Both the position numbers and the translations under genes were made by a program. A stretch of DNA of 64,000 nt, taken from the sequence record PV574017.1. One strand, given 5' to 3'. Position 1 is the stretch's first letter. The number at the start of each line of letters is the position of its first letter. This DNA comes from Escherichia phage EcM-vB1. Below the pieces are notes generated by a model, which saw only the letters and a program-made list of their open reading frames with translations, ran no database searches and was not told where the DNA came from. Shown here one piece after another: positions 15,568-16,881 of this stretch.

Positions 15568-16881
15568 ATGATTGTTATCCCGATTAACCAAATTGAAGAT
15601 AAGGTTGCTCAACAACCTGATATCACTGTTGGTCGTCACTTTATTGAACAGTTGATTAACAACAACTTGATTCCAGATGGTATCTGTCCTATTATTACTG
15701 GTGGGGCTGTTCGTGATGCTGTGCTTAATAACACAGCTCCACATGACATTGATATCTTTATTGTCAGAGGACAAACACCAAGAACTCAAAATACTTTCGT
15801 CCCAACTGATCGTTGGCAAGCTCTTGGAAGAGAGATTGAAAGTAATGTGAAGGAATGGCTAGAGTCACAAGATATTGAATATGCATCCCTTCTTGCTGAA
15901 TCTACAGATGAGCTGTATACTGGGACTTCTCAACTATCGTTTACTGATATTATTGAGTTTCAGTGGAATGGAACCCGCATTCAGTTCATGTTTAATTATC
16001 CCACTTCTATCGAAGAAGTTCTAGATAATTTTCCTATGATGTGTCGTGGTGCTATGACTCTTGATAAGCTATTCATGACCGTTCATGGATACTTGGCTAT
16101 GACTTCTCCAATTCCAGTGGTTGTGACTGCTCGAGAGATTAAATATGTCCACAAGAAGTGGCCTAACTCACAAGTGCTAAGGTTCCAAACTCCGGGAGTT
16201 GCTTTTCATTATATGGCACATGCTCGGCAACAACCTATACCTCAGATGGTCAGGGATCTAGTTAATAATCAAGGTCAAGTATCTCTTATTAGCGACACAG
16301 CAAGTCCTCAATATTGTGTTGACCAAGACATGAGTCGATTCTTTGGAATCCCCTATGAAGAGATTCAGTTAATGTCAAGCACACATGGCTCTAGCCAGAT
16401 TCATGCGTATTGGTCTGAAGGGTTGACAAATTTAATGACTAACACGGGTGGTGATCTGCTTGGTCGAGAAGAGGAACCTAACCGACACAATGCAATTGAA
16501 GGGGTTTTTGTAGCCCCTGCAATGCGTCGAGCACAAGAGTCACGAAGAGTAAGCCCTACTCGTAGAACATCTTTTGAAGAAGCTCTTGGTATTACAAGTG
16601 ATTCTATGGAGAGATGGATGGCTAGTCCTTCTCGTGGTCGACCAAACGGCTTAACTGTTAGCGCACGTCAGTTCTCTGGTCAGGGTTTTGCTGTTGGTGA
16701 TATCAACGCCCCTTCTCGTGTTATCTGGACTGATGAAGGTATGGAACAAGATTTAGGAGATAGTCTCGCTGATCGCTTTATTGCTAACAACCCTGAAGTA
16801 TTAGAACCTCAAACCCGTACAGTTCGGTTTGCCGATGAAGCGGGTCGTGGAATCTCTTTTGACATGGAAACAAATAACTAA
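15568..16881 (+). CDS. pol-beta superfamily nucleotidyltransferase (CCA-adding / poly(A) polymerase head-like) with long C-terminal extension
   Basis: GGAVRD...DIDIF motif; start at the ATG immediately after the upstream stop. Confidence 0.6.
   Translation: MIVIPINQIEDKVAQQPDITVGRHFIEQLINNNLIPDGICPIITGGAVRDAVLNNTAPHDIDIFIVRGQTPRTQNTFVPTDRWQALGREIESNVKEWLESQDIEYASLLAESTDELYTGTSQLSFTDIIEFQWNGTRIQFMFNYPTSIEEVLDNFPMMCRGAMTLDKLFMTVHGYLAMTSPIPVVVTAREIKYVHKKWPNSQVLRFQTPGVAFHYMAHARQQPIPQMVRDLVNNQGQVSLISDTASPQYCVDQDMSRFFGIPYEEIQLMSSTHGSSQIHAYWSEGLTNLMTNTGGDLLGREEEPNRHNAIEGVFVAPAMRRAQESRRVSPTRRTSFEEALGITSDSMERWMASPSRGRPNGLTVSARQFSGQGFAVGDINAPSRVIWTDEGMEQDLGDSLADRFIANNPEVLEPQTRTVRFADEAGRGISFDMETNN

Follow-up and report, generated by a model that had tools for sequence, protein, structure and literature searches.

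Phages related to phiEco32 carry, among their DNA replication genes, a protein with the catalytic signature of CCA-adding enzymes and poly(A) polymerases. What would such an enzyme do there? We addressed this question in a 64,000-nucleotide stretch of Escherichia phage EcM-vB1 (PV574017.1; hereafter the window), which is DNA of a Kuravirus, i.e. a phiEco32-like coliphage. The open reading frame given for the nucleotidyltransferase (NTase) in the original prediction is exact (Table 1). It is the orthologue of phiEco32 gp73 (83.5% identity), its product is 100% identical to the 'nucleotidyltransferase' of Escherichia phage EcP-vB, and the PHROG 12715 profile matches it over its full length (residues 1-437, E = 1.6e-230), the annotation 'nucleotidyltransferase' (PHROG 12715) having already existed for gp73 orthologues. 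The ORF listing allows a longer in-frame reading from a GTG at 15511. The ATG start is backed by Met1 and the 'MIxIP' sequence, invariant in 29 family members, and is the start annotated in all related phages. A sigma-70-like promoter candidate at 15526-15555 was rejected: it is conserved but lies inside conserved coding sequence, and the promoter scan gave nothing above chance.

Table 1. Position of the NTase gene, its parts and its neighbours in the window.
Feature	Position	Strand	Basis
Primase/helicase, first of the conserved four-gene block	13225..15015	+	Pfam, PHROG, synteny
Stand-alone PolA 3'-5' exonuclease subunit, upstream neighbour	15009..15566	+	Pfam DNA_pol_A_exo1, PHROG
NTase gene, complete (437 aa + stop)	15568..16881	+	ORF listing, PHROG 12715
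Conserved NTase-like core (residues 1-215: head and short neck-like part)	15568..16212	+	pLDDT, conservation, dN/dS
Motif A: GGAVRD (residues 45-50, nt 15700-15717), then DIDIF (residues 60-64, nt 15745-15759)	15700..15759	+	Invariant 29/29
Gln139, invariant; inferred third metal-ligand position	15982..15984	+	Aligns with phrog_1614 Asp and Gad2 Gln88
Family-specific basic helix REIKYVHKKWP (residues 189-199)	16132..16164	+	Pattern 29/29
Helical linker, poorly conserved (residues 216-290)	16213..16437	+	Low confidence, dN/dS 0.25
Hypervariable tail, predicted disordered (residues about 291-437)	16438..16878	+	pLDDT 23-40, dN/dS 0.38
dCTP deaminase, downstream neighbour	16891..17424	+	Pfam DCD E 3.6e-34, synteny
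PolA polymerase subunit, partner of the exonuclease subunit	24097..25941	+	99.8% identical to Bas90 'DNA polymerase'

The GGAVRD...DIDIF motif on which the family assignment was founded is real, and it is no chance match, because its key residues (G45, G46, R49, D50, D60, D62 and F64) show no variation across the family, i.e. in 29 members whose clades are only 21-34% identical. This motif A comprises the hG[GS] turn and a pair of aspartates that bind metal; both the turn and the [DE]h[DE]h pattern are present in 29/29 members. The predicted structure of the catalytic domain shows the Pol-beta-like alpha/beta fold, and among solved structures those of PAP I and of class II CCA-adding enzymes come nearest. 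The third metal ligand is less canonical. Gln139 pairs with an invariant Asp of the sister family phrog_1614 (D134 in member A4) and with the invariant Q88 of Gad2, and the family alignment places a conserved D/E127 on the neighbouring strand; we infer that Gln139 may occupy the position of the third metal ligand. Since it is Gln and not Asp or Glu, the chemistry may depart from canonical two-metal nucleotidyl transfer. The basic helix further downstream carries a [DE]xxYxxxK pattern in 29/29 members, with Y193 and K197 invariant.

The original prediction had left some 350 residues unassigned. Those up to about residue 215 turned out to belong to the core, and the description could be refined for the rest, which splits into a low-confidence helical linker and a predicted disordered tail. 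Core model confidence (pLDDT) lies mainly between 63 and 91 and drops at residues 71-76 and 110-122; distant family members are short (274-320 aa) and align to the profile only from position 1 to about 220, and all family invariants of the 29-member alignment fall within the core. Confidence in the linker is mixed and mostly low (10-residue means of 40-70). The tail is rich in indels, and clades cannot be aligned there; its middle (318-372) is basic and Arg/Ser-rich (net +5), and its C-terminus (373-437) is acidic (net -8).

From the catalytic signature, one could suspect RNA 3'-end tailing or tRNA 3'-end repair: the head would extend RNA of the host or the phage by A or CCA, and RNA binding would fall to the basic tail. 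The nearest solved structures speak for this reading, as does motif A, which is near-identical to that of the CCA enzymes and aligned as GGxVRD...DxD with 6IBP, human TRNT1 and E. coli Cca. To our knowledge, every characterised enzyme of the Pfam family PolyA_pol (PF01743) acts on RNA 3' ends, and in E. coli PAP I a basic C-terminal region is said to bind RNA, an analogy for the Arg/Ser-rich segment of the tail. The likeness does not go beyond motif A, which was the sole stretch aligning to CCA-adding enzymes of the PDB, E. coli Cca and PcnB in profile searches and hhalign. PF01743 scored 20.5 bits, below its gathering threshold of 23, and among 39 family members its best E was 1.9e-4, with any match in 26 of them. 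The NCBIfam scan gave no match, nor did a scan of PADLOC defence models. A regular-expression search of the first 230 residues found motif B (RRD) in 0/29 members and motif D ([ED]DxxR) in 0/29; these are the motifs for ribose and for template reading of C and A. Also absent are the alpha-helical body and tail domains with which such enzymes grip the acceptor and T-arm of tRNA: residues 280-437 are predicted to be disordered, and distant members are short. Class II tRNA nucleotidyltransferases and PAP I (e.g. 1MIV, 3H37, 3AQL) have both of these motifs as well as body and tail domains, whereas the kuravirus NTase combines a core of about 215 aa with a disordered tail and is encoded in a DNA replication module. 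Without motifs B and D, without body and tail domains and with the alignment limited to motif A, a canonical CCA-adding enzyme was rejected. The original prediction is partly supported: the head is of the CCA/poly(A) type, and the tRNA-holding part is missing. Stand-alone CCA-head proteins and minimal Pol-beta NTases (2LA3 of S. pneumoniae, MenT toxins, TENT5/FAM46) showed no specific sequence relationship, and their accessory regions differ from those of the kuravirus NTase.

The tRNA complement argues in the same direction. It had been predicted that no tRNA gene is visible in the window, and this holds: ARAGORN found none, and no Rfam family reached gathering score. The phage does possess one tRNA, a tRNA-Arg(UCU) located about 0.5 kb before the window start, which counts for an RNA-end activity. 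Yet its CCA is genomically encoded, so a need for CCA addition was rejected, and the host encodes a Cca enzyme of its own, which is able to repair CCA ends. In related phages, the annotated region around the replication module showed no RNA ligase or Pnkp partner genes, and in two phage groups the linkage is to genes of DNA replication. True CCA-adding enzymes are present in jumbo phages (PMC7824862), a precedent for activity on RNA ends. On balance, we consider RNA tailing or repair unlikely.

Closer relatives were found among phage proteins. The closest sequence family outside its own is phrog_1614, whose profile matched residues 35-155 (PHROG, E = 3.4e-7) and whose members were aligned by hhalign with a probability of 94-95%; the kuravirus NTase is a separate, longer sub-family. 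Examples are gp3 of Aeromonas phage phiAS7, CF7 gp47, Klebsiella K59PH2 and Vibrio OWB gp14. Both groups have the head-domain core with a conserved Tyr (Y117) and the F125 and F155 positions, and both are encoded in replication modules beside PolA genes: in Autographiviridae (T7-like phages), phrog_1614 genes adjoin DNA polymerase, ligase or helicase. The phrog_1614 NTases differ in being tail-less (about 200 aa) and in having an invariant Asp at the position taken by Gln139 in the kuravirus family, and the R[DE]xxYxxKK motif of the kuravirus family is missing from four aligned phrog_1614 sequences. We know of no experimentally established function for phrog_1614 NTases. A related NTase of a T7-like phage, encoded beside the primase/helicase, has been reported to be cytotoxic.

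A more distant relative has a known phenotype. Gad2 is the Gabija anti-defence protein 2 of SPbeta-like Bacillus phages (PF26128; Yirmiya et al., bioRxiv 10.1101/2023.05.01.538930), a predicted NTase whose overexpression is toxic and whose knockout makes SPbetaL7 Gabija-sensitive. The anti-Gabija evidence is genetic only, from SPbetaL7 and a Brevibacillus homologue; Gad2 counts as a validated anti-Gabija protein with a mechanism still unknown (PMC12904381). A precomputed label 'PF26128:Gad2 (weak)' is found on 27/44 kuravirus-clade clusters. In our Pfam scan, whose library lacks the PF26128 model, neither the kuravirus NTase nor bona fide Gad2 was matched to it. In hhalign comparisons, the kuravirus NTase aligned with Gad2 at a probability of 64-83% (E = 6e-5 to 1e-5), reversed or shuffled controls giving 3% or less, and HMM-to-sequence scores were weak (5-16 bits; 5-14 bits with a Gad2 HMM built for this analysis). 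The alignment pairs GG, DxD, Q139/Q88, F..C and R..Y..K and, when extended, brings the REIKYVHKKWP helix onto Gad2 R151, Y155 and K158. The two proteins have in common GG, DxD(Y/F)F, F..C and R..KY..K, an invariant Gln located in the strand that follows the hairpin, an NTase-fold N-terminal domain of like size and a co-linear order of predicted secondary structure. They are also clearly different: Gad2 has GG(A/T)ITS instead of GGAVRD, its model shows a confident, beta-rich folded C-terminal domain (residues about 240-400) which the kuravirus NTase lacks and to which nothing aligns, and its gene is part of an anti-defence island rather than a replication module. Overall, these comparisons point to a remote homology between the kuravirus NTase and the Gad2 NTase domain, a weaker link than that to phrog_1614. 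The link between phrog_1614 and Gad2 rests on PHROG HMM matches only, a direct hhalign of A4 against Gad2 being not significant.

The family is small (32 matches among 1.84 billion representatives). Its genomic position is constant: in every context examined, the order is primase/helicase, PolA 3'-5' exonuclease subunit, NTase and dCTP deaminase, and this was seen in Kuravirus, Suseptimavirus, Bas89 and two uncultured lineages. The exonuclease gene, whose PHROG annotation is 'DNA polymerase exonuclease subunit', ends with a TAA (15564-15566) 1 nt before the NTase ATG, a spacing that suggests translational coupling; the junction is kept at 0-3 nt in 6/7 lineages. The matching PolA polymerase subunit is encoded 8.5 kb downstream and has no exonuclease domains, in line with the phiEco32 gp53 annotation ('lacks 5'-3' and 3'-5' exonuclease domains'). 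Such an arrangement could indicate a replisome accessory that binds the split PolA (exonuclease and polymerase) or DNA ends and whose catalysis is altered or lost, for example a factor for bridging or processivity, or a terminal transferase on which replication or processing of the 193-bp terminal repeats depends. Coupling to the exonuclease subunit, the conserved placement beside PolA genes seen in two phage groups and the Gln at the inferred third-carboxylate position would all fit, and so would the acidic and aromatic end of Kuravirus alleles, which resembles the tails of T7 gp2.5 and gp4. This acidic C-terminus is not kept in SU7-type alleles, however, the strict GG...RD...DxD conservation argues for nucleotide chemistry and, among cultured phages, the family is detected solely in records of Gordonclarkvirinae from E. 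coli and Shigella and in no other phage group.

The rate at which the gene changes is a further argument against an accessory of this kind, since a core replisome partner should evolve slowly, like its neighbours. Compared to a Suseptimavirus, the NTase is 31% identical and the flanking genes about 93% (helicase, 93%); it is the most divergent among the 66 ORFs common to the window phage and this Suseptimavirus. We hence regard the accessory role as rather improbable. Nucleotide identity falls at the gene borders, and dS is 0.8-0.9 inside the gene and 0.10-0.17 in the flanks. The extreme allele diversity is confined to the NTase gene, whose position in the replication module is fixed across deep divergence. 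Divergence of this order, the highest in the genome, could also come from relaxed constraint on a decaying or dispensable NTase remnant, a view to which the many indels of the tail and its dN/dS of 0.38 lend something. It is scarcely credible for the protein as a whole: core dN/dS is 0.07-0.10 (about 0.08), i.e. purifying selection, the catalytic residues are invariant across clades, the ORF is intact in 69 phage records (at least 80% protein coverage) of 97 with a match, and one NTase peptide was found in the SU10 proteome.

Gordonclarkvirinae show a strong and unusually broad resistance to restriction-modification (RM) systems, for which the dCTP deaminase and NTase pair has been pointed to (BASEL-II, PMC11990801). 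The genome carries 13 EcoRI, 36 EcoRV, 11 EcoKI and 105 EcoP1 sites, roughly the expected numbers or more, so the resistance to these four enzymes is not accounted for by site avoidance, an explanation that was rejected. CCWGG, GATC and several GC-rich palindromes are depleted in the genome. It has to be considered whether the NTase, together with the dCTP deaminase, modifies DNA or the nucleotide pool, through a non-canonical nucleotide or a covalent mark that would account for the RM resistance. The published pointer, the normal site numbers and the gene arrangement (the NTase always abuts the dCTP deaminase, and ThyX is encoded in the same module) are compatible with it. Nonetheless, dCTP deaminase and ThyX are enough for an ordinary dTTP supply, the sister phrog_1614 NTases occur in T7-like phages without dCTP deaminase, and an enzyme for an invariant DNA chemistry is not expected to be the most divergent gene of a genome. 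We also know of no DNA hypermodification pathway with a Pol-beta or class II NTase. Modification is thus, in our opinion, quite unlikely.

Our tentative preference, which we hold to be plausible while giving it somewhat less than an even chance, is that the protein is a replisome-linked, Gad2-like counter-defence NTase and not a tRNA CCA-repair enzyme. Counter-defence appears likelier than tRNA repair because of the missing tRNA-holding part, the distant kinship with Gad2 and the fastest divergence among shared genes. It would be a minimal, phage-specific NTase, with a Pol-beta-fold core derived from the head of class II CCA/poly(A) polymerases and a disordered tail standing in place of the RNA-binding body and tail domains. 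Produced together with the replisome, it might transfer a nucleotide from an NTP or dNTP to a 3'-OH, at the ends of phage DNA or of primers, or to some other target, and so shield replicating phage DNA from a variable host factor. The likeliest such factor would be a nuclease defence that senses DNA ends, like those of the Gabija or OLD type, by comparison with Gad2 in Bacillus phages, and the variable tail may serve in binding a partner or nucleic acid.

Several observations temper the counter-defence reading. The Gad2 homology is remote, with an hhalign probability below 90% and no counterpart of the Gad2 C-terminal domain, and Gln occupies the inferred third metal-ligand position. In Gordonclarkvirinae the NTase belongs to the universal core genes and keeps a fixed locus, whereas many genes for anti-defence are accessory, and the divergence of the NTase could partly reflect a small constrained core joined to an unconstrained tail. 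Our literature search returned no paper tying Gabija to kuraviruses. A wider generalisation, which we consider doubtful, is that the kuravirus NTase, phrog_1614 and Gad2 belong together in a single, widespread class of phage NTases that are associated with the replisome and neutralise nuclease defences. Its scope would be DNA-end- or nucleotide-sensing defences (Gabija, OLD-like, possibly RM), and its means nucleotidylated 3' ends of phage DNA or primers, or an inhibitory nucleotide, with Gln in place of the third carboxylate. Allele hypervariability would then track host defence variants, and the NTase would add to the restriction resistance of Gordonclarkvirinae.

For these phages, which are common therapy candidates with an unexplained broad restriction resistance (PMC11990801), the analysis corrects the misleading labels 'class II CCA-adding enzyme' and 'tRNA nucleotidyltransferase' in about 100 kuravirus genomes, and the same correction probably applies to about 180 Autographiviridae genomes. 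If the protein is a functional relative of Gad2, it would explain the frequent presence of a small NTase beside PolA-type polymerases in podophages. It would also offer a system for finding what Gad2-type NTases do, tractable in E. coli because the BASEL phages Bas86-93 plate on K-12.

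The window is a Kuravirus genome (phiEco32-like, Gordonclarkvirinae), i.e., that of a coliphage; across bases 13000-18000 it matches Escherichia phage EcP-vB at 100% identity and many kuraviruses at about 96%. The original prediction of a nucleotidyltransferase (NTase) ORF carrying GGAVRD...DIDIF was confirmed: both motifs are present (residues 45-50 and 60-64) and the coordinates coincide. A longer reading would begin at a GTG at 15511, yet the annotated start is favoured because none of the 29 aligned family members varies at the Met of 'MIxIP', which is also the start annotated in all related phages. 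The family is already catalogued: phiEco32 gp73 is the orthologue (83.5% identity), and PHROG 12715 'nucleotidyltransferase' is matched over the full length (E 1.6e-230). We found no published experiments on the kuravirus family in the literature searched.

Features in and around the NTase locus (window coordinates unless a record is named)
Feature	Coordinates	Strand	Length	Remarks
PolA 3'-5' exonuclease subunit (exo)	15009-15566		185 aa	half of split family A DNA polymerase
sigma-70-like TTGACC-18-TATATT	15526-15555	+		in exo 3' end
NTase ORF	15568-16881	+	437 aa
three consecutive ORFs	17425-18039	+	79, 69, 69 aa	downstream of dCTP deaminase
divergent ORF	23667-24080	+	137 aa	directly upstream of PolA polymerase subunit gene
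PolA polymerase subunit	24097-25941		614 aa	separate gene, 8.5 kb downstream
divergent ORF	3634-4830	+	398 aa	heads amidoligase cluster
phiEco32-type amidoligase cluster	3634-12082 and 12656-13006	+		upstream of replication block
ORFs split or truncated by deletions	8756-10399; 10890-11345 plus 11372-12082			deletions at about 10204 and about 11324
tRNA-Arg(UCU)	L014:10658-10733 (EcP-vB record)			about 0.5 kb upstream of window position 1
other dCTP deaminase allele	L004:4296-5343 (Bas89 lineage); L019:4324-5371 (metagenomic kuravirus)		184 aa	followed by HNH homing-endonuclease gene

AlphaFold2 modelling with 39 family sequences gave a confident structure for the N-terminal part only (blocks 1-210, pLDDT mostly 63-91). 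In a Foldseek search of the PDB the top matches were class II CCA-adding enzymes (3H3A, 3WFR, and 5HC9; E about 1e-4, 200-236 columns, 12-14% identity), and the predicted NTase fold therefore stands. Membership among the CCA-adding enzymes was rejected: the Pfam PolyA_pol match reached 20.5 bits, below the gathering score of 23, and neither RRD (motif B) nor [ED]DxxR (motif D) occurs in the core (first 230 residues searched) of any of 29 family members. An NCBIfam scan gave no matches, and only motif A (residues about 38-66) aligned in profile searches against PDB sequences and in hhalign comparisons with E. coli Cca and PcnB. All 29 members carry GGxxRD and DxDxF, as well as a family-specific [DE]xxYxxxK helix motif (REIKYVHKKWP in the window); family-wide invariants are M1, G45, G46, R49, D50, D60, D62, F64, Y117, I128, Q139, P156, Y193, and K197. 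The protein is a real, conserved mini-NTase that descends from class II enzymes and is probably catalytic or nucleotide-binding.

The 'large unknown C-terminal domain' first proposed did not hold up: weakly conserved helices (residues 216-290) are followed by an indel-rich tail (291-437), enriched in disorder-promoting residues, basic in its middle and acidic at its end, and predicted to be disordered (pLDDT 23-40 at residues 280-437). Only 32 relatives emerged when 1.84 billion representative proteins were searched exhaustively with an HMM; the distant ones (274-400 aa) match just profile positions 1 to about 220. Ancestry and the basic tail segment are what speaks for an enzyme that tails RNA or repairs tRNA. 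With the tRNA-recognition apparatus absent, motifs B and D missing throughout, and the tail disordered in the model, the proposed tRNA/CCA function is unsupported and we regard this explanation as unlikely. As had been noted, the window holds no tRNA gene, nor does it hold any Rfam family at gathering score. The one tRNA of the phage lies just outside; its gene ends in ...GGGCGC-A-CCA, so that CCA is genomically encoded, and a tRNA-Arg is annotated at the equivalent place in EK010.

The NTase is co-encoded, and probably co-translated, with a split PolA. The order primase/helicase, exo, NTase, dCTP deaminase was found in every genome examined (Kuravirus; Suseptimavirus SU7 and EK010; Bas89; 4E8; and, with a helicase of only 79% identity, an uncultured 85.7-kb contig), and a 2.8-kb uncultured contig runs from helicase through exo and NTase to its end. 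The NTase ATG lies 1 nt past the exo stop codon, and six of seven lineages keep a 0-3 nt junction. In cultured phages we found the family only in Gordonclarkvirinae of E. coli and Shigella, with 97 records. A role as a structural accessory of the replisome is another reading, to which we give a low probability. The promoter-like element, which precedes the NTase start by about 12 nt, carries a promoter annotation in SU7 and 4E8 and is conserved across lineages; conserved codons overlap it, however, and scanning for promoters gave no enrichment over shuffles. Past the dCTP deaminase, the three small ORFs resemble tandem paralogues and share a TR(K/Q)xAR..KK core (ORF2 vs ORF3: 26% identity, E 3.5e-5).

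The NTase gene is a divergence hotspot with sharp limits, and of the shared phage genes it diverges fastest. Compared to SU7 and 4E8, helicase and dCTP deaminase are 93-95% identical and exo about 80%, whereas the NTase shows 31% identity over two thirds of its length; nucleotide identity drops from 80-95% to 40-60% at its borders and recovers past the stop codon. Low-identity mosaic patches also lie inside the gene within Kuravirus. Among 66 ORFs of at least 100 aa with a homologue in EK010 it is the most divergent, exceeding the tail-fibre genes. The next are the 137-aa ORF (39% identity) and the 398-aa ORF (42%); since the former adjoins the polymerase subunit gene, each half of the split polymerase lies next to a hypervariable gene. 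Across seven kuraviruses, dN is 0.070 in the NTase vs 0.0006 in the helicase (about 100 times), and dS is 0.36 overall and 0.8-0.9 at residues 71-215, vs 0.10-0.17 in neighbouring genes, which we read as old alleles swapped by recombination. The Bas89 lineage and one metagenomic kuravirus carry another dCTP deaminase allele (58% identity to that of the window), so allele replacement at the locus is not restricted to the NTase. Decay of the gene is very improbable: the core (residues 1-215) has a dN/dS of 0.07-0.10, the tail one of 0.38, and low core values with high divergence indicate a functional protein whose active site is constrained while the whole diversifies. Loci that engage variable host factors would typically show such a pattern.

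The NTase is related to phrog_1614, an NTase family of Autographiviridae, and more remotely to Gabija anti-defence protein 2 (Gad2). Phrog_1614 is its second PHROG match (E 3.4e-7), its BFVD structural match, Aeromonas phage phiAS7 gp3, belongs to that family (E 2e-37), and hhalign joined the two families at 94-95% probability over 110-116 columns. Proteins of this type (roughly 200 aa) occur in 177 phage records; genomes are nearly all 40-46 kb among the 40 records listed, and four of four phages examined in detail are Autographiviridae. There the gene sits within the replication module, in the order ligase, NTase, DNA polymerase or DNA polymerase, hypothetical gene, NTase. An invariant Asp of phrog_1614, on the strand past the beta-hairpin, aligns with the invariant Gln139 of the kuravirus family; judging from this alignment, Gln139 would stand where the Pol-beta fold has its third metal ligand.

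DNA or nucleotide modification has been suggested by the BASEL-II authors as the explanation of RM resistance (PMC11990801). EcoRI, EcoRV, EcoKI, and EcoP1 sites are not avoided in the window (13, 36, 11, and 105), so some protective mechanism is needed. Phrog_1614, however, occurs without dCTP deaminase, and to our knowledge no DNA modification pathway uses the NTase fold; we consider it quite unlikely that this enzyme modifies DNA or nucleotides. Across the whole window, certain oligonucleotides are strongly and selectively avoided: CCWGG is seen 3 times vs about 75 expected and GATC 126 vs 239-289, PstI, SacI, BamHI, SmaI, StuI (AGGCCT), PmlI (CACGTG) or similar sites are absent from it, and CAGCAG is over-represented (95 vs 22 expected). 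The amidoligase-type cluster (COOH-NH2 ligase, amidoligase, GlmS-like amidotransferase, ATP-grasp, and gamma-glutamyl cyclotransferase) could bear on the reported RM resistance too. Two single-base deletions relative to Bas90 (99% nucleotide identity) hit its GlmS-like glutamine amidotransferase and ATP-grasp (RimK-like) genes, and are either sequencing/assembly errors or real pseudogenisation in this isolate.

Most kuravirus-clade protein clusters carry a precomputed Pfam label 'PF26128:Gad2 (weak)'. Gad2 is a 400-aa protein of SPbeta-like Bacillus phages with an AlphaFold-predicted NTase domain; its knockout renders SPbetaL7 sensitive to Gabija, a Brevibacillus homologue blocks Gabija, and expressed SPbetaL7 Gad2 is toxic (bioRxiv 10.1101/2023.05.01.538930). 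A 2026 review (PMC12904381) still lists no known mechanism for it. With profiles built from the supplement of the bioRxiv study and collected homologues, the kuravirus alignment matched 19 Gad2 sequences at 64% probability (E 6e-5, 100 columns), and N-terminally trimmed alignments with 120 Gad2 sequences gave 82.6% (E 1e-5, 111 columns), against at most 3% in reversed or column-shuffled controls. Paired positions are GG/GG, D60xD62/D45xD47, Q139/invariant Q88, and F155..C159/F102..C110, joined in the extended alignment by R189..Y193..K197/R151..Y155..K158. The N-terminal 160 residues of the Gad2 AlphaFold model follow the same secondary-structure order; Gad2, unlike the kuravirus protein, has a folded beta-rich C-terminal domain. 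Gad2 itself matches phrog_1614 (E 1e-5 to 2e-6). Plain HMM-to-sequence scores are weak (5-16 bits). The relationship is thus remote, and the NTase is no more than a candidate member of the Gad2 family proper. In P. putida phage Emajogi, the NTase gp22 adjoins primase/helicase and is cytotoxic when overexpressed (2026 preprint).

What is new here is that the protein is excluded from the CCA-adding enzymes, that its tail is predicted to be disordered, that a Gln stands at the inferred third ligand position, that hypervariability is extreme and specific to this gene, and that phrog_1614 and Gad2 are linked to it. By analogy with Gad2, we tentatively favour the possibility that the kuravirus NTase is a counter-defence or host-interaction enzyme that would act at the replication stage.
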